Sequence record: MH791411.1
Strand: one strand, 5' to 3'
Source of the DNA: Escherichia phage Ecwhy_1
Length of the DNA: 64,000 bases
Notes under the pieces: generated by a model
What the model was told of the DNA's origin: nothing
Seen by the model: only the letters and a program-made list of their open reading frames with translations
The model's database searches: none
Shown: in pieces, positions 43,121 through 62,719 of the stretch
Numbering within the stretch: position 1 is the first letter of the stretch
How the letters are laid out: each line of letters opens with the position of its first letter
Program-made: the position numbers and the translations under genes

Positions 43121-43186
43121 TTGTTACTTCATGAATCATCCGTGTATTTAAAAAGGCATTTCTCTTTGCCGTCTTGATGTGGTCAT
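43068..43186 (-). ncRNA. Candidate ~120-nt small RNA / leader transcript (P2 start to hairpin terminator)
   Basis: Consensus promoter P2 followed ~110 nt later by a terminator-like hairpin, with no convincing ORF between them (only an 11-codon ATG frame without SD). Purely structural inference. Confidence 0.2.
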
Positions 43187-43230
43187 TATATCACATCGTT
43201 CAGGCTTGTCAACAACTTTTTTATTTCTTT
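43187..43230 (-). promoter_or_regulatory. Consensus sigma70-type promoter P2 (copy 1 of a duplicated 44-bp cassette)
   Basis: Minus strand TTGACA-agcctgaacgatgtga-TATAAT (-35 at 43215-43220, -10 at 43193-43198, TGa extended -10). About 38/44 nt identical to the copy at 43271-43314. Confidence 0.75.
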
Positions 43231-43270: not shown

Positions 43271-43314
43271 GTGGTCATTATAACACATCATTCGGCGTTG
43301 TCAACATCTTTTTT
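43271..43314 (-). promoter_or_regulatory. Consensus sigma70-type promoter P1 (copy 2 of the duplicated cassette)
   Basis: Minus strand TTGACA-acgccgaatgatgtgt-TATAAT (-35 at 43299-43304, -10 at 43277-43282). Lies 84 nt upstream of P2. Confidence 0.75.
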
Positions 43315-56420: not shown

Positions 56421-56639
56421 TTATTTGGAATTATACAAGCAATACAAGTATACCATAGGAGCAAAATGTTCGGTATCAACTAAGTATATTAACTGGGTGT
56501 CATATATACCGTACAAATCTCGAAATTTATCTCTGTACAGCAACAATGACTTATTGTTGTGTGGGTCAACCCAGTACTTTAAGTCATTGTAGTGCAACGT
56601 GTTATTACGGTAACCTGATAATATTTGTTTTTTAGCCAA
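56421..56639 (-). CDS. Hypothetical protein (72 aa)
   Basis: Overlaps the upstream gene by 8 nt. No motif recognised. Confidence 0.55.
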   Translation of the reverse strand: MAKKQILSGYRNNTLHYNDLKYWVDPHNNKSLLLYRDKFRDLYGIYDTQLIYLVDTEHFAPMVYLYCLYNSK

Positions 56640-57009
56640 CTTTTTTACAATTACTTAGTAAATGCATGATGGCATCAGCGGTAAATGGTCCCAGTACTAA
56701 AACTTCTTCTCCATTACCGAAGATACTCAATGGTACAGATTGTTGTCCTGCTAGATATTCGATTTGTTCTAATTCGAAAATGTCATCAGCAGCATAAACA
56801 ACCTGTTCCATTTCATTATCTTTAATCCATGACTGCCAATGTTCTTTAAACTGCTTCGCTTCGTATTCCAGTACATAGTTAGGTGATTCTGGATTGTACT
56901 GATGTAGCATTGTCATACCAGCCATAACCAGTTCTTTTGGTGATGGAGTAGAATCTTTCAGTACTACGATAGCTTGGATAGTTTTAACTTTAACGTTTTG
57001 AGCAGCCAT
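56632..57009 (-). CDS. Hypothetical protein (125 aa) with weak PTH2/DUF2000-fold resemblance
   Basis: The spacing of AIVVLKD...W..W....EQVVYAADDIFELEQIEYLA....VPLSIF...EEVLVLGPFTADAIMHLLSNCKKV mimics peptidyl-tRNA hydrolase 2. The catalytic DAGxT-type residues are not evident. Confidence 0.45.
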   Translation of the reverse strand: MAAQNVKVKTIQAIVVLKDSTPSPKELVMAGMTMLHQYNPESPNYVLEYEAKQFKEHWQSWIKDNEMEQVVYAADDIFELEQIEYLAGQQSVPLSIFGNGEEVLVLGPFTADAIMHLLSNCKKVG

Positions 57010-57349: not shown

Positions 57350-57829
57350 TTATTTTAGAATGTATAAGTGTTTTTCTGCATTAACCAGTCTGTGGTCAAT
57401 GATTTCTTTGATAACGTTCCAGTTACCACCGCCTAAATCGGCTCCAATTTTCGGGAAGTGTACATGGATCTCTTGTGGTTCATTTTTAATGAATTCATTC
57501 ATCGAGTTAAATGCAAGGTCAATCGCATCATAACTTACATACTTCTTACCATCATTACCATAATACTCTTGTGTAATGCAGTTTGCAATAATTAAGTTAT
57601 TATTTGGTGCTGCATAGACAACTTCACCCAATTTCAAACCATTCTGATTGGTATAACGTGTATGATACACATCATATGCCAATTGGTGACGCTTTCTTAA
57701 TTCTTTTGCAAAACCAGAACCCATCTTACCCTGAGCGTTACAACCATGAGCGATAATATGTAATGCAGTTTGATCAGTAGTAACAGTACTGAATAAATCA
57801 AACAGATTACCACAATGTTCATGTATCAT
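57350..57829 (-). CDS. Macro-domain protein (ADP-ribose / Appr-1''-p binding or hydrolase)
   Basis: LHIIAHGCNAQGKMGSGFAKELRKRH is the N-terminal macro signature (h.NC.G.MG.GIA). 159 aa is a single macro-domain size. RBS cGGAGaatataATG. Confidence 0.8.
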   Translation of the reverse strand: MIHEHCGNLFDLFSTVTTDQTALHIIAHGCNAQGKMGSGFAKELRKRHQLAYDVYHTRYTNQNGLKLGEVVYAAPNNNLIIANCITQEYYGNDGKKYVSYDAIDLAFNSMNEFIKNEPQEIHVHFPKIGADLGGGNWNVIKEIIDHRLVNAEKHLYILK

Positions 57830-58168: not shown

Positions 58169-58411
58169 TTATTTAGGGTTGCTCGAAACCTCTACTGAAG
58201 CGATGAATGCCAAAATATCATCTTTACTGAAAGCTTCAATAATATAAGCAACCGCTTTATCGTACTGTTCTTTCTTAGTAGTGTATTCTTTCATTTTGTG
58301 AATTTTACGTTGTGCTTTAACTTTTGCAGCTTCCATATCAGGCATTTTAAATTCAACACCCAATGTGTCAGCTAAATGTTTTGCACGAGATGATACTTTA
58401 TCAATATTCAT
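58169..58411 (-). CDS. Hypothetical protein (80 aa)
   Basis: Start overlaps the glutaredoxin stop (TAATG-type junction). Helical, Lys-rich. Confidence 0.55.
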   Translation of the reverse strand: MNIDKVSSRAKHLADTLGVEFKMPDMEAAKVKAQRKIHKMKEYTTKKEQYDKAVAYIIEAFSKDDILAFIASVEVSSNPK

Positions 58412-58659
58412 TAATTCCAGCGACCTTCTTTAAGACCTTCAACGAAACCAGTACAGCCACCTGGAACGTAAACATCGTTTACGAAAATTTGTGGAACCTG
58501 TCGTACTGGCTCACCACATAGTTCAGATAGTTTAGCACCATCAATACCAGCGGTAACAATATCGATAAACTCCATATCAAATTTGTTATTTTCACATACT
58601 GCTTTAGCAGTGTCGCAGAATTTACAACCAGTAGTGCGACCATAAATTTTAACTTTCAT
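58411..58659 (-). CDS. Glutaredoxin (Grx1 / T4 NrdC-like)
   Basis: KIYGRTTGCKFCDTAK (CxxC) and VPQIFVNDVYVPGG parallel E. coli Grx1 FGRSGCPYCVRAK and VPQIFIDQQHIGG (recalled). Confidence 0.8.
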   Translation of the reverse strand: MKVKIYGRTTGCKFCDTAKAVCENNKFDMEFIDIVTAGIDGAKLSELCGEPVRQVPQIFVNDVYVPGGCTGFVEGLKEGRWN

Positions 58660-59062
58660 TTCTTTTCCCTTTATTTCGTTGAAACATTGTAACAGCCTTT
58701 ATTATACTGTTACACATTCGTTCAGTCAAATACTTTTGACAATCTAGTACATCAATGTACATGAACTTATCCAATTCTGGGTGACTTCTACCATATCTGT
58801 TTGTGTAAGTACTTTTACACTCCAACTCTTCTGGTATAGGCTTATCTTTGGCTGTATAGAAAAATAAAACTAAACGTTTCCCCTTTCTATACGATACATC
58901 ACCAAGAAACAGAAGATCATCTTCATCGATTTCATATCCTGTCTCTTCGTAGCATTCACGTACAGCAGCCTCTTTAAATGTTTCTGTACCTTCAGTTTTA
59001 CCTTTAGGTAAGTCCCAGTGATTCTGTCCGTGTTGTATGCCCGATAAGTATCTGACCATCAC
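58649..59062 (-). CDS. Nudix hydrolase (second copy in window)
   Basis: Nudix box PKGKTEGTETFKEAAVRECYEETGYEI. GTG/ATG start with no SD, very close to an extended -10 element. Confidence 0.8.
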   Translation of the reverse strand: MMVRYLSGIQHGQNHWDLPKGKTEGTETFKEAAVRECYEETGYEIDEDDLLFLGDVSYRKGKRLVLFFYTAKDKPIPEELECKSTYTNRYGRSHPELDKFMYIDVLDCQKYLTERMCNSIIKAVTMFQRNKGKRNES

Positions 59063-59168: not shown

Positions 59169-60284
59169 TTAGAACATTTGCTTGATTGCTTCAATACGCA
59201 ATTCAGCAACAAAATCACGAATCTCCGATGTTTGGAGTTCACCATCTTTCACTAACTGCTGAATATCAGGTAATTCAACATCAGTATAACGATCATAAAC
59301 TTTAATAATCAAATCTTCAAGTTCAGAATCAATTTCTTTGTTCAAAATGAAGTTTTCCAGTACTTTGTAAAGGAAATCTTCACCACCATTGTTTTTGATA
59401 TTCATATCCAGTAAGATTTGTCCCATTTCAACTGGGGTCTTCTTACGGAAGGTTTTAATATCTTCACGGAAACGCTTGATGTAATTACTAAACTTAACGT
59501 ACTTAACTGGAACCTTAATGGAACCGTTAAGTACTGAATCATTATTTACTTCTTCATTTTCAAGAAGTACTGTCCATAAGAAATATGGTTTATATTCTTC
59601 TGTACAATTTGCAGCGATAGAATCAATTAATTCCAGACGTTTCTTGGTAACTGGAACTGTAGTAAATGCCTTTTCGTAATAACCAAATTGTACCAGAGTT
59701 TTGATAAACTTGGAAGGGTTTTCTTCAGAAAGTGCTTTTTCGAATTCAACAAAAACACGATCTGGAACTAGATGGTCTAGTTCACCAGTACTAACCATAT
59801 CTTTACACATTGTCATAGTATCATCATGGATTGTAAAGTCGGAGTAACGCGTAGCGAAACGGGCCAAACGTAGAACACGCAATGGATCTTCTTTAAAGTG
59901 TTCTGATACATGACGAAGTACTTTGTTCTTGATATCAGCTTTCCCGCCATAAGGGTCGATGTGAATCTGGAGTACTGGATCATATGCAATACTATTGATT
60001 GTGAGATCACGACGATATAGATCTTGTTCTAGTGTCACACCTTTTGTATTCACTTCGAAGCCACCATATCCAGTACCAGTTTTACGCTCAGTACGGGCTA
60101 ATGCGTGTTCATTACCTTCTGGACTTAGATATACAGGGAAATCCTTACCTACTTGCTTGTATCCAATACTTTGCAAGTATTTAATATCGGATTCGGTAGC
60201 ACCGACAATAACATAATCTTTGTCTTTTGCACGGATACCCATTAAACGGTCACGAACGTAGCCACCAACCAAATACTTTTTCAT
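59169..60284 (-). CDS. cca: tRNA nucleotidyltransferase (CCA-adding enzyme, class II, no HD domain)
   Basis: LVGGYVRDRLMGIRAKDKDYVIVG (GGxVRD...DxD), RRDLTINSIAYD, DPLRVLRLARFATRY. 371 aa. Confidence 0.9.
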   Translation of the reverse strand: MKKYLVGGYVRDRLMGIRAKDKDYVIVGATESDIKYLQSIGYKQVGKDFPVYLSPEGNEHALARTERKTGTGYGGFEVNTKGVTLEQDLYRRDLTINSIAYDPVLQIHIDPYGGKADIKNKVLRHVSEHFKEDPLRVLRLARFATRYSDFTIHDDTMTMCKDMVSTGELDHLVPDRVFVEFEKALSEENPSKFIKTLVQFGYYEKAFTTVPVTKKRLELIDSIAANCTEEYKPYFLWTVLLENEEVNNDSVLNGSIKVPVKYVKFSNYIKRFREDIKTFRKKTPVEMGQILLDMNIKNNGGEDFLYKVLENFILNKEIDSELEDLIIKVYDRYTDVELPDIQQLVKDGELQTSEIRDFVAELRIEAIKQMF

Positions 60285-60285
60285 A

Positions 60286-60408
60286 TCATTCCCCCATCAA
60301 CCAATCACGTAGACGTTCCCAGAAGCCTTTTGGCTGATATTCTGGATATTCATATTCATCTGTTCCTTGCTCGGAAACACCCCAATCTTCTTCTAATACT
60401 GTAATCAC
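60286..60408 (-). CDS. Unannotated acidic micro-ORF A (40 aa), paralog of micro-ORF B
   Basis: GGAGGcattGTG start. Peptide (M)ITVLEEDWGVSEQGTDEYEYPEYQPKGFWERLRDWLMGE*. The stop lies 1 nt before the cca ATG. About 60% identical to the peptide at 61418-61543, with substitutions that preserve the frame. Confidence 0.55.
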   Translation of the reverse strand: MITVLEEDWGVSEQGTDEYEYPEYQPKGFWERLRDWLMGE

Positions 60409-60419
60409 AATGCCTCCAA

Positions 60420-60857
60420 TTAAATTAATCTATCACGTAGACGGTCGTAATATTTTGCATGTATATCTAGTATACACTGAAATGATGGATAGTCAATACT
60501 AAATGTATCATCAATGAACATGTACTGAAGAAGTGTTTCTGGTCCATTATCAACAACTGGTAATGTCCCTTCTTTTTTTGATAGGGTGTGCCACATCAAC
60601 TCACTTTCAATATGGTGAGTTGCGTATGTCAATTCAATCTTACTTTTTCGTAGTAAAATTAACAATTCATCATTGTCATCGAGTGCATTACGAAATTTAA
60701 TACGAACTGTACCCTGGAAATTATTAGTGTACATAACACGATGATGATTGTATGAAATTAAACCACGTCTTTCAGTACTGATTTCATGTTCAGCAAAGTA
60801 CTTTAACGTTTCATTAAATTTTGGAATTTTACTTGCGTCCACCAATGTAATCCTCAT
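60420..60857 (-). CDS. Small paralog-family protein (member 4)
   Basis: C-terminal LLQYMFIDDTFSIDYPSF matches YLQYQFIDDTFGFDFELY of ORF 60829. The N-terminus MRITLVD matches MRTFNID and MRNTLIK if started at ATG 60857 (track start 60863). Confidence 0.65.
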   Translation of the reverse strand: MRITLVDASKIPKFNETLKYFAEHEISTERRGLISYNHHRVMYTNNFQGTVRIKFRNALDDNDELLILLRKSKIELTYATHHIESELMWHTLSKKEGTLPVVDNGPETLLQYMFIDDTFSIDYPSFQCILDIHAKYYDRLRDRLI

Positions 60858-61236
60858 ATACATGATATACGTTCATTATACTATTATATAGTTCAAAGTC
60901 AAATCCAAATGTGTCATCAATGAACTGGTATTGCAGATATTCTTCATATGAAGCATCAATTGGTAATGATCCAGCACGAATATCATCTGATTTAAAATCG
61001 TCAATGTATCTTAATGTTATGTCTTCATCAACAGTAATATCTATCATCAACGTATCGTCACTGTACCAAAGGTTATGTATACGGATGTAAAGTTTCTTAG
61101 CACGATTAAAACTAGATACATTGGTATTGCGATGGAGTTTATCTAAGTTGAAGTAAAAACCAGGCTCGTTTTTACTTATGTTTTTCATATGTTCTGCAAT
61201 CGAATCAATTATATAATCAATGTTGAATGTTCTCAT
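60829..61236 (-). CDS. Small paralog-family protein (member 3)
   Basis: Track start 61242 is TTG. ATG 61236 overlaps the upstream stop (ATGA). See paralog motifs above. Confidence 0.65.
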   Translation of the reverse strand: MRTFNIDYIIDSIAEHMKNISKNEPGFYFNLDKLHRNTNVSSFNRAKKLYIRIHNLWYSDDTLMIDITVDEDITLRYIDDFKSDDIRAGSLPIDASYEEYLQYQFIDDTFGFDFELYNSIMNVYHVYEDYIGGRK

Positions 61237-61418
61237 AAACAAATCTCATAGCGGTTTGTGTTTGGATTGTAGCAATAGGTATCATTAATTTTAACACCAG
61301 GTTTAAGTGTTATTGTTGTTCCTACTTCAGTACTGGGTTCTGCATCACAATAAATCATCACACCAACGCCACAGATTAAAGCTAAGATACAAATAATAGC
61401 ACATATTGTATATTCCAT
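61233..61418 (-). CDS. Small membrane protein (61 aa)
   Basis: MEYTICAIICILALICGVGVMIYC is one hydrophobic helix, followed by a Cys-containing soluble tail. ATG 61418 overlaps the micro-ORF B stop (TGATG); the track start 61436 lies inside micro-ORF B. Confidence 0.55.
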   Translation of the reverse strand: MEYTICAIICILALICGVGVMIYCDAEPSTEVGTTITLKPGVKINDTYCYNPNTNRYEICL

Positions 61419-61543
61419 CACTCCCCCATCAGCCAATCAAAGAGACGTTCCAAGAAGCCATTAGGCTTGTATTCTGGTTCTTTGTTCACGTCGGTTTCTT
61501 GTTCATAAACACCCAAATCTTCTTCAAGTATAATTGTATTCAT
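61418..61543 (-). CDS. Unannotated acidic micro-ORF B (41 aa), paralog of micro-ORF A
   Basis: The ATG overlaps the upstream stop (TAATG). Peptide MNTIILEEDLGVYEQETDVNKEPEYKPNGFLERLFDWLMGE*. The stop overlaps the next ATG (TGATG). Confidence 0.6.
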   Translation of the reverse strand: MNTIILEEDLGVYEQETDVNKEPEYKPNGFLERLFDWLMGE

Positions 61544-61914
61544 TATATATTATACTCTATTATACCATCATCACTTTCACCAGACAACCACTTAATGTAA
61601 TTTACTTTGTAGAAATTAATCAATGCATAAGTGCTGTACTCAATCAACAAGTGATCTCTCAAGAATTCGTCTTGAGCATATCCATCTTCATCCAAATCTG
61701 TTGGAATATCAGTTTCTTTGTCTTGAATGTGTAAAGTTATTGTGTCTTTTGTTATACAAATTGTTATATGATTACAAATAGTAATGATGATTATGCTATA
61801 TGTTCTATTGAAATATATTGTGAAATCTTCATTAATATTATATCTTCGACTTTCTTCATATTTCTGATATGGGTCGAAATGTGATAAATTAACTTTAATT
61901 AATGTATTTCTCAA
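61543..61914 (-). CDS. Small paralog-family protein (member 2, divergent)
   Basis: Probable TTG start at 61914 after GAGGTGtaag, giving (M)RNTLIKVN. The C-terminal DEFLRDHLLIEYSTYALINFY weakly matches the family motif. Confidence 0.5.
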   Translation of the reverse strand: MRNTLIKVNLSHFDPYQKYEESRRYNINEDFTIYFNRTYSIIIITICNHITICITKDTITLHIQDKETDIPTDLDEDGYAQDEFLRDHLLIEYSTYALINFYKVNYIKWLSGESDDGIIEYNI

Positions 61915-61926
61915 CTTACACCTCAA

Positions 61927-62307
61927 TCATATAAAGTAATTATACATTTTATTGTACAATATAAAAAGGTCTTTAACATTATCATAAGTAATATCAGATA
62001 CATCATGAATTAATGATAACTGGAAAAATGATGCTTCGTCTATCTCTACTGGGATTATAACATCATAGTCTTCGTCAATTTTATGGGTGTAGTATTTTAT
62101 GTGATCAGCATTCAACACAAGGTTGTATTTTGTATCATCTTCAATTAATCCGACAAATTGAGATTTTTGATTAATAAAAAATCCAATCCCAACACAACGG
62201 TTATCTGGATATGGATAGTACCATCTATTAATAACTAGGTGTTCAGGTAAGTCCATATCATGTGTTGATATTAAAGATTTTACAATTCCCATCCAGGAAT
62301 AATTCAT
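61927..62307 (-). CDS. Small paralog-family protein (member 1, divergent)
   Basis: The C-terminal EASFFQLSLIHDVSDITYDNV follows the pattern of ..LQY.FIDDTF..D. RBS tatGGAGttttaattATG. Confidence 0.55.
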   Translation of the reverse strand: MNYSWMGIVKSLISTHDMDLPEHLVINRWYYPYPDNRCVGIGFFINQKSQFVGLIEDDTKYNLVLNADHIKYYTHKIDEDYDVIIPVEIDEASFFQLSLIHDVSDITYDNVKDLFILYNKMYNYFI

Positions 62308-62320
62308 AATTAAAACTCCA

Positions 62321-62352
62321 TAAGAAAAGGGACAGAATAATCTCTGTCCCTT
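62321..62352 (-). terminator. Rho-independent terminator after hpf
   Basis: Minus strand aagggacag-agattatt-ctgtccctt followed by TTcTTat. Confidence 0.65.
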
Positions 62353-62353
62353 T

Positions 62354-62382
62354 ATTATATCTTACTCTTCGTCTTCAGTCAA
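62354..62382 (-). promoter_or_regulatory. sigma70-type promoter straddling the hpf stop codon
   Basis: Minus strand TTGACT-gaagacgaagagtaaga-TATAAT (17-nt spacer). The predicted start site falls inside the 5' arm of the terminator hairpin. Confidence 0.55.
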
Positions 62383-62694
62383 GTCTTCTTGAACTGGATG
62401 TTCGGGGTGGTTACGGCGATGCAATTTGATGCTTTTGTCTTTACCTAAGACAGTTTCCATTTTTTCAAATGAATCACCAATTGCTTTGTATAAATCTGCA
62501 TCATCGGCGGTGACAATCTTACCACCTGATGTTAAAGTTACGGAATATTGATTCTTATGCTCTTTCTTCACATGAACACCGATATAAAGTACTGAAGAAT
62601 CACTAAACTTCGTTAGTGCATTTGCTTCTGCATGAATCGCGTCATTGATTGCTGGAGTAATATCAACATTACCTTGGATAACTAAATCTAGCAT
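62362..62694 (-). CDS. hpf: Ribosome-associated inhibitor / hibernation factor (short HPF-RaiA/YfiA family)
   Basis: 110 aa. VDITPAINDAIHAEANALTKF and DADLYKAIGDSFEKMETVLGK parallel recalled E. coli YfiA [21 protein letters not shown] and [21 protein letters not shown]. The acidic C-terminal tail QEDLTEDEE resembles the YfiA EEVEEE tail. Confidence 0.8.
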   Translation of the reverse strand: MLDLVIQGNVDITPAINDAIHAEANALTKFSDSSVLYIGVHVKKEHKNQYSVTLTSGGKIVTADDADLYKAIGDSFEKMETVLGKDKSIKLHRRNHPEHPVQEDLTEDEE

Positions 62695-62719
62695 AATTTA
62701 CCTACCTTTTTTTTTAGTT

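Follow-up and report, generated by a model that had tools for sequence, protein, structure and literature searches.

The window analysed here is a 64,000-nt stretch of the genome of Escherichia phage Ecwhy_1 (sequence record MH791411.1). The subject of this analysis is a small gene on its minus strand (62362–62694), whose 110-aa product belongs to the HPF/RaiA family of ribosome hibernation factors and which follows the gene for a predicted endolysin. The 2.5 kb around the HPF gene show 94% identity to phages fEgEco12 and Turkey3 and ~83% identity to 121Q and PBECO4; by sequence, the phage of origin is a jumbo coliphage of the Asteriusvirus type. The features of the locus are listed below in the direction of transcription; SD denotes a Shine-Dalgarno sequence, ORF an open reading frame, and the fractions are matches to the sigma70 consensus.

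63763..63790, minus strand: promoter-like site of the sigma70 type ahead of the lysozyme-HPF unit (TTGATA-16-TATACT, the -10 element being preceded by TG; 10/12)
63647..63731, minus strand: conserved 5' leader of the endolysin gene, from alignments by eye and folds of 11 lineages
63719–63731, minus strand: near-invariant leader motif GTAGAAAGTCCAA
63697–63717, minus strand: leader hairpin GAGGC..GCCTC
63683–63693 and 63650–63660, minus strand: second leader hairpin, in which GCCCTCTTTGT (63683–63693) is paired with the SD ACAAAGGAGGC (63650–63660)
62720..63646, minus strand: predicted signal-arrest-release (SAR)-type endolysin, 308 aa from the TTG at 63646, with LysM and GH24 phage lysozyme domains and an N-terminal membrane helix (IAVGVLVSSALFAAIGFYG)
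62832..62859, minus strand: weak internal promoter-like site in the lysozyme gene (TTGATA-16-TAAATT; 9/12)
62695..62719, minus strand: intergenic spacer of 25 nt, with an A-run and the SD-like AGGTAGGT at 62700–62707, ending 5 nt before the ATG
62362..62694, minus strand: HPF/RaiA-family gene, an ATG-start ORF of 110 aa (core, residues 1 to ~94; extension, 88/95–110)
62354..62382, minus strand: near-consensus sigma70 promoter TTGACT-17-TATAAT (11/12), overlapping the 3' end of the HPF gene
62326..62353, minus strand: intrinsic terminator hairpin AAAGGGACAGAG-ATTA-TTCTGTCCCTTT, then a T-rich tract, directly after the -10 element

A preliminary description of this DNA had placed the protein in the S30AE/RaiA family and had suggested a profile search (Ribosomal_S30AE/sigma54_modulation) as a check. 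That search bore out the assignment: the protein matches the Pfam profile PF02482 (Ribosomal_S30AE) with 43.1 bits (E 7e-11; residues 8–87 aligned to profile positions 5–84 of 88) against a gathering threshold of 23.7 bits, and it also matches a PHROG named Ribosomal_S30AE. PF02482 was the only domain above threshold in a Pfam scan of the 110 residues, which found no dimerisation domain of the kind present in long HPF. The structural model has strands at residues 2–8, 36–46, 49–56 and 59–65 and helices at 14–30 and 68–94, with residues 88–110 disordered (pLDDT <50), and the encoded C-terminus reads ...VQEDLTEDEE in the ORF translation. Thus, the ORF, the Pfam match and the model agree on a short core with an acidic tail (QEDLTEDEE) and without a dimerisation domain, as had been described. 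When the model was compared with the PDB using Foldseek, all 35 of the 35 best matches were HPF, RaiA or pY chains, many of them ribosome-bound (TM ~0.6–0.7). Sequence searches of the PDB gave significant E-values for HPF, RaiA and pY chains only, the best single match being 9t0z, a 183-aa HPF.

Pairwise dN/dS values of 0.15–0.29 among diverged relatives point to purifying selection on the HPF gene, with a lower dN in the tail than in the core, and these values, together with the conservation of the gene, rule out a pseudogene or a chance ORF. The 62362–62694 region is a genuine, selected gene for a short-form member of the HPF/RaiA (Ribosomal_S30AE) family, and we regard the assignment of family and fold as practically certain.

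Comparison with the two Escherichia coli proteins gave a divided picture. The closest E. coli relative by sequence is HPF (YhbH, 95 aa), which is 29% identical to the phage protein, against 21% for RaiA (YfiA, protein Y, 113 aa); the phage profile scored E. coli HPF with 31.2 bits and RaiA with 24.5 bits, and in a neighbour-joining tree the window protein fell outside the RaiA clade. In its layout, the phage protein resembles RaiA, as both have a single S30AE domain of the same fold, no dimerisation domain and an unstructured extension of ~20 residues in which a basic patch is followed by an acidic end (...KLHRRNHPEHPVQEDLTEDEE in the phage protein). The likeness to YfiA put forward in the preliminary description therefore holds for the architecture (a short form with an acidic-ended extension past helix 2) but not for orthology: by these sequence comparisons, the protein is RaiA-like in layout and is not a RaiA orthologue. 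Unlike in RaiA, the conserved basic residues 17, 23, 26 and 83 are missing, and the protein is encoded by a lytic phage, in a gene adjoining that of an endolysin. With E. coli HPF, the phage protein shares the fold, the K80, K87, K89 ridge and an aromatic residue 30, but E. coli HPF stops at helix 2 and is tailless, whereas the phage protein is tailed. E. coli HPF acts together with RMF to form 100S ribosomes, whereas a tailed protein would be expected to oppose 100S formation, by analogy with the RaiA literature. Long HPF (Firmicutes, Thermus and others; ~180–190 aa) shares the N-terminal S30AE domain with the phage protein and differs in having a C-terminal dimerisation domain.

The identity of the gene is already known from annotation and from a published catalogue and is not a new discovery. 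A Turkey3 protein named 'ribosome-associated inhibitor A' is 99% identical to the window protein, RefSeq labels 121Q gp533 and the PBECO4 homologue 'HPF/RaiA family ribosome-associated protein', further records label homologues 'sigma 54 modulation protein / S30EA', and the Sharanji genome paper counts the homologue among translation factors (PMC11895373). We found the HPF gene in 37 phage records. Phage-encoded HPFs were catalogued by Mizuno et al. (2019), who listed those of rV5-like phages and gp183 of Cronobacter phage GAP32 (PMC6375957). The catalogued proteins belong to the same Pfam family and embody the same idea of a virus-encoded hibernation factor. GAP32 gp183 and CBB_188 occupy the syntenic slot after the same endolysin and have an acidic tail followed by a promoter-terminator module, although the HPFs of the GAP32/Yen9-03 type are just 17–19% identical to the window protein and rV5-like phages gave no tblastn match to it at E <= 0.01. 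Unlike in the catalogued HPF genes, the promoter is shifted into the coding sequence in the window lineage. Newly described here is the setting of the gene: its conserved pairing with the endolysin gene, the promoter that lies within the tail codons and the leader with its sequestering hairpin. The phAPEC6 paper tabulates virion proteins, and the terms 'ribosome' and 'inhibitor A' are absent from its text; in the CBB paper 'ribosom' occurs solely in the translation section (PMC5259590).

A word-indexed search for homologues returned the phage family itself only, and an exhaustive profile search gave 57 matches. One of these, P0013 (1605 aa, with ~29 near-identical repeats), was disregarded, being probably an assembly artefact whose score is a sum of weak matches. 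Searches of IMG/VR for related loci with narrower queries yielded one locus per query. The loci used for comparison are denoted below by L numbers.

The pair formed by the lysozyme and HPF genes is widespread. Its members are adjacent or nearly so in Asteriusvirus, EJP2, Erwinia phage Hallingskeid, Munch-like Salmonella and Klebsiella phages, Mimasvirus (CBB, GAP32), Eneladusvirus and XaC1, and the pair is also found in Serratia BF, Erwinia SNUABM phages and XbC2; about 60 of the 72 records with the lysozyme have the HPF gene beside it. The syntenic HPF genes of six lineages score 43–79 bits with PF02482, all those tested passing the threshold. Judged from this gene order, the lysozyme-HPF arrangement is ancestral to most RaK2-like jumbo phages. 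The window HPF is 31% identical to that of Munch, 19% to that of GAP32 and 21% to that of XaC1, and in a neighbour-joining tree the GAP32-type and XaC1 proteins were not joined to the window clade. Since the tree does not unite the lineages, it is synteny, and not the tree, that speaks for a common descent of the syntenic HPFs, and some genes may have been replaced in situ.

In the window, the stop codon of the upstream lysozyme gene (62720–62722) is separated from the HPF start by the 25-nt spacer, and spacers in relatives measure 15–19 nt, always with an SD of the GGT/GAGG type. The gap of 25 nt and the separate SD of the HPF gene (AGGTAGGT, 5 nt ahead of the ATG) are thus as the preliminary description had them, and so is the physical coupling to the endolysin gene, there being no terminator between the two genes in the window phage. 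The ribosome-binding site (RBS) of the HPF gene is predicted to lie in a weak AU-rich hairpin, with a pair probability of 0.71. In Munch (L004, 4372–4989) and in the metagenomic locus L013 (33–659), ORFs of 205–208 aa with 60% mutual identity stand between the lysozyme and HPF genes; in Munch the inserted ORF is accompanied by an annotated terminator, and its close relative L010 has no insert. The inserted ORF has a sub-threshold match to AP2 (17 bits versus 33) and may represent a mobile insertion of the endonuclease type. GAP32 has two small ORFs between the lysozyme and HPF genes. In RaK2, the HPF slot is taken by a different ORF, gp505, which is related to the 137/147-aa paralogues of the window and whose similarity to the 126-aa neighbour is not significant; four HPF queries gave no match in the other RaK2-like Klebsiella phages.

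The upstream member of the pair matches Pfam Phage_lysozyme (38.8 bits) and LysM (21.4 bits) and carries its hydrophobic segment at residues 12–30. Its longest ORF begins at the TTG at 63673, but the TTG at 63646 is preceded by a strong SD (AAGGAGG), and the resulting 308-aa start is annotated in 121Q (gp532), Turkey3 and metagenomic relatives, so that 63646 is most likely the true start. Its role as an endolysin is a published prediction: the family that includes CBB_187, GAP32 gp180, 121Q gp532 and RaK2 gp506 has been predicted to consist of signal-arrest-release endolysins (PMC5259590). Of the two predicted lysozymes of phAPEC6, one, Gp293, which is probably the homologue of the window lysozyme, was not detected in the virion. 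A separate 162-aa lysozyme of the T4 type, for which lytic activity has been shown, sits elsewhere, among baseplate genes.

The 5' leader of the endolysin gene is more strongly conserved than the proteins. Its order is constant, with GTAGAAAGTCCAA followed by a hairpin and then by another whose pairing takes in the SD or the start region, and it is also found upstream of lysozyme genes at loci L001–L004, L010, L019, L020, L022 and L023. The arms of the second hairpin are CCCTCTTTGT/ACAAAGGAGG in the window lineage, CTCCTGTTGCT/AGCAAATAGGAG in EJP2 and Hallingskeid and TCCTTATT/AATAAGGA in GAP32, CBB and Yen9-03, so that the sequences differ, with compensation, genus by genus. The predicted pairing probability of the SD region is 0.7–0.98 in most lineages and 0.31–0.50 in Munch, L010 and RaK2. 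Rfam gave no match at E <= 1 anywhere in 61400–64000, leader and terminator included. By its conservation and folds, the leader looks like a translational control element of the endolysin gene, and endolysin translation is probably controlled separately. The lysozyme gene e of phage T4 is under translational control, its RBS being hidden in early transcripts, and the window leader would be analogous to that system.

At its other end, the HPF gene runs into a compact transcription module. In the 62354–62382 promoter, the Leu-Thr codons of the tail (TTG-ACx) serve as the -35 element, and the -10 element begins 2 nt past the stop codon. All 11 of the 11 sequences compared use TTG for the Leu residue and ACA or ACT for Thr, keep A2 and T6 of the -10 element and have a spacing of 17–18 nt; TTG accounts for 25% of the local Leu codons. 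In CBB, GAP32 and Yen9-03, the homologous promoter stands just past the stop codon, outside the gene, and the CBB site has been published as the RpoD-like promoter Porf_189. As the last codons of the HPF gene double as a promoter, deletions of the tail would be polar on the downstream genes unless designed around it.

The preliminary description had mentioned a terminator after the HPF gene, and it is the GC-rich hairpin at 62326–62353 with its T-tract, which covaries in eight lineages. The terminator scan scored the hairpin on the plus strand; its reading on the minus strand, with the stem GGGACAGA/TCTGTCCC followed by TTTTCTTAT, was taken from the sequence. In an RNAalifold analysis of the eight lineages, nine terminator pairs were kept, seven of them through compensatory double changes, and this covariation is good evidence for a working terminator. 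The hairpin begins 1–3 nt after the -10 element in every lineage. A transcript from the promoter would therefore start inside the 5' arm and escape the terminator that stops transcripts from upstream. As read from the sequence, the terminator and a sigma70-type promoter that serves the next genes are interlocked.

Sites of this type also bear on the timing of HPF expression. The sigma70-type site upstream of the unit (63763–63790) has an equivalent in EJP2 and Hallingskeid (TTGACA-17-TAGACT). In the promoter scan, a single site is not significant by itself. The window has 11 sigma70 matches of at least 11/12 on its minus strand and none on its plus strand, against ~3.7 expected for the two strands together. 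Perfect matches (12/12) include 43277–43304 and 43185–43212, at least three strong ones fall within the 3' end of the ORF ahead of them (62354–62382, 60875–60902 and 58701–58729), and the structural genes on the plus strand have no strong match. From this strand asymmetry, such promoters appear to be used by the phage. The tail and baseplate genes of the window are preceded by ATAAATA-type motifs, which are the late class described for CBB and GAP32 (PMC5259590). Upstream of the lysozyme-HPF unit the late motif ATAAATA has no exact match; there is a near-match, GTAAATA, at 63793–63801, and the GTAAATA element is likewise found upstream in 121Q and EJP2. Our literature searches found no transcriptome for a RaK2-like phage carrying the HPF gene.

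The weak site inside the lysozyme gene lies 137–165 nt before the HPF start. It recurs at 9–11/12 in 121Q, L017, EJP2 and Hallingskeid and is absent at the same place in L015, L010, CBB, Yen9-03 and XaC1; it could provide the HPF gene with its own transcript or may merely reflect conserved V-D-K codons. That the lysozyme and HPF genes form one unit is suggested by the lack of a terminator between them and the presence of one after them, yet there is the weak internal site, and Munch has an ORF and an annotated terminator in between. The RBS of the endolysin gene is predicted to be sequestered in a hairpin; if the leader acts in this way, the timing of the mRNA and that of the endolysin protein need not coincide and HPF could come earlier. 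The preliminary description had expected the gene to be expressed with the lysis functions. This is not borne out by the sigma70-type site upstream, the lack of an exact late motif and the sequestered endolysin SD. Rather, the sigma70-type signals suggest that HPF can be made well before lysis and not only at the end of the cycle.

Every phage lineage examined has an acidic C-terminus (TEDEE, TESDE, STEDNEE, SEEESEE, DEEIEE or DDDEDE); within the family of the window protein, D104, T106, E109 and E110 are invariant and DLTEDEE is invariant or nearly so. The acidic tail is kept also in lineages with the promoter outside the gene, and as an acidic run ends HPF in every lineage, promoter overlap or not, the comparison supports a function of the tail at the protein level. 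The tail of RaiA is described as flexible, as unresolved and as heading towards the RMF site (bioRxiv 10.1101/2025.10.07.680626). The list of ribosome-contact positions was taken from the same source, and 18 phage sequences were compared with 51 cellular relatives at these positions, which include K/R17, K23, K26, K29, Y/H30, K80, R83, K87, K89 and K91 (E. coli HPF numbering). K29, F/Y30, D69, Y71, K80, K87 and K89 are retained in 15–18 of the 18 phage sequences.

Whether dormant bacteria retain a working translation apparatus depends on ribosome hibernation, and it is in just such hosts that phages have to translate. Listings of HPF homologues encoded by viruses date back to 2017–2019, and the functions ascribed to these proteins are so far predicted ones. 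In the reading that we prefer, the phage protein would, as its cellular relatives do, dock on the host 30S subunit in the decoding cleft, using K29, the aromatic residue at position 30 and three lysines of helix 2 (K80, K87 and K89), all of which are retained. Vacant host ribosomes would be held as inactive, nuclease-protected 70S monomers, and the tail would run towards the RMF site and oppose the formation of 100S dimers, as has been proposed for RaiA. Binding of the protein to ribosomes seems to us probable; the more specific scheme, with binding in the 30S cleft, protected inactive 70S monomers and a tail opposing RMF-driven dimerisation, is tentative, and we would give it a probability of about 0.4–0.5.

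Several observations weigh against this scheme. With the NCBIfam equivalog TIGR00741 (HPF/YfiA), the window protein scores 34.7 bits, under the cut-off of 40.9 (with the HPF equivalog NF007780, it scores 23.3 against a cut-off of 125), and its Pfam score is the lowest of the syntenic HPF set (43 bits; range 43–79). Residue 23 is non-basic in all 18 phage sequences, R83, which contacts m4C1402, is lost in 17 of the 18, and the window lineage additionally lacks R17, K26 and K91; this contrast between phage and cellular sequences is probably understated because sequences similar to the phage profile are over-represented in the cellular set. The rV5 HPF, which comes from another lineage and is the single phage HPF put to the test, was expressed in E. 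coli and was not recovered in salt-washed 70S ribosomes (PMC6375957), and our literature searches found no functional study of any phage HPF beyond that of Mizuno et al. Phages of the RaK2/K64-1 type have the endolysin without an HPF gene at the slot, so that HPF appears dispensable. Finally, there is no obvious gain from silencing ribosomes for a lytic phage with tRNAs, IF3 and a CCA-adding enzyme of its own. It is the loss of K23 and R83, the negative result with rV5 and the absence of the gene from RaK2-type phages that call for caution on the mechanism.

The family-wide loss of K23 and R83 and that of R17, K26 and K91 in the window lineage, next to a strictly kept tail, would also fit a decoy that acts against hibernation. 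Such a protein would bind weakly at the HPF/RaiA site and be easily displaced by initiation, while its tail and its occupancy of the site would exclude RMF, HPF and RaiA; 100S ribosomes would be prevented or reversed, and ribosomes would be available in slow-growing or stationary hosts. An anti-hibernation role for viral HPF was proposed by Mizuno et al., and the loss of rV5 HPF from 70S ribosomes on salt washing fits weak binding (PMC6375957). The phage invests in keeping translation going, as the window encodes a CCA-adding enzyme and relatives encode tRNAs and IF3, and promoter signals of the sigma70 type would suit a protein made ahead of the late phase. The loss of contacts is, however, equally consistent with lost ribosome binding, RaiA is itself an inhibitor, and nothing points to an easier displacement of the phage protein; we consider this role rather unlikely. 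Still less likely is the combined version, a viral anti-hibernation factor in which a weakened HPF/RaiA mimic that excludes RMF, HPF and RaiA would be expressed from a sigma70-type unit whose endolysin cistron is silenced by the leader. If this were true, slow-growing or stationary hosts would keep their ribosomes as monomers, ready for quick use by phage mRNAs, and HPF, not the endolysin, would be the early product of the operon. The opposite timing, with HPF made late together with the endolysin and silencing translation once it is unneeded, was the main proposal of the preliminary description. It agrees with the apparent placement of the gene in one transcription unit with the predicted endolysin (at a gap of 15–25 nt), with the persistence of the pair in ~60 genomes and with the resemblance of the upstream GTAAATA element, shared with 121Q and EJP2, to the late motif ATAAATA. 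This shut-off appears improbable in view of the sigma70-type signals, the lack of an exact match to the motif that precedes the tail genes and the conserved hairpin around the endolysin RBS, through which the timing of the mRNA and of the endolysin may differ. Moreover, the neighbours are genes for RNA ligase, CCA-adding enzyme, Nudix hydrolase, glutaredoxin and a macro domain, not for holin or spanin, and there is no evident selective value in silencing ribosomes minutes ahead of lysis.

That neighbourhood of RNA-repair or counter-defence-type enzymes (RNA ligase, CCA-adding enzyme, Nudix, macro domain) would suit a protein that occupies the A/P-site cleft and so keeps abortive-infection effectors, or RNases set free during host takeover, away from 16S rRNA and idle ribosomes, and cellular HPF of Staphylococcus aureus is described as protecting ribosomes from degradation by RNase R (PMC8406268). 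No particular defence directed at ribosomes is known to be countered in this way, and the idea overlaps with our preferred scheme of protected 70S monomers, from which it differs solely in the selective benefit; as a separate explanation we give it little credence. The S30AE fold could also have acquired a new function off the ribosome, for example in binding another RNA or a protein, with the conservation of the C-terminus due in part to the embedded promoter. The loss of several conserved basic contacts, the score below the NCBIfam cut-off, the absence of rV5 HPF from purified 70S ribosomes and the constraint on the Leu-Thr codons as a -35 element at the DNA level are all compatible with such a change. 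We nevertheless doubt it strongly, as the phage proteins still have K29, an aromatic residue 30 and the lysine ridge of helix 2, the acidic tail is kept where the promoter sits outside the gene, and every structural neighbour is a ribosome binder. The locus offers a clean test case for these possibilities: a single small gene beside the endolysin gene in ~60 enterobacterial jumbo phages, with a conserved tail, distinctive lost rRNA contacts and natural 'knock-out' relatives in RaK2 and K64-1.

The lysozyme-HPF pair is flanked by the gene for an RNA ligase, located upstream in relatives, and on the other side by the following genes, in a cluster whose order is conserved from Asteriusvirus to XaC1.

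59169–60284, minus strand: CCA-adding tRNA nucleotidyltransferase, downstream of the HPF gene
58649–59062, minus strand: Nudix hydrolase
58411–58659, minus strand: glutaredoxin-like protein
57350–57829, minus strand: weak macro-domain protein

The 'peptidyl-tRNA hydrolase' label used in Turkey3 for the homologue of 56632–57009 (minus strand) was set aside, since this 125-aa protein has no Pfam match at E <= 0.01. Between the genes for HPF and the CCA-adding enzyme, the minus strand carries tandem small paralogues (60286–62307), none of which has a Pfam match. The ORFs of 40 and 41 aa at 60286–60408 and 61418–61543 are 68% identical, and those of 137 aa (60829–61242) and 147 aa (60420–60863) have a C-terminal motif in common, which is also present in RaK2 gp505.

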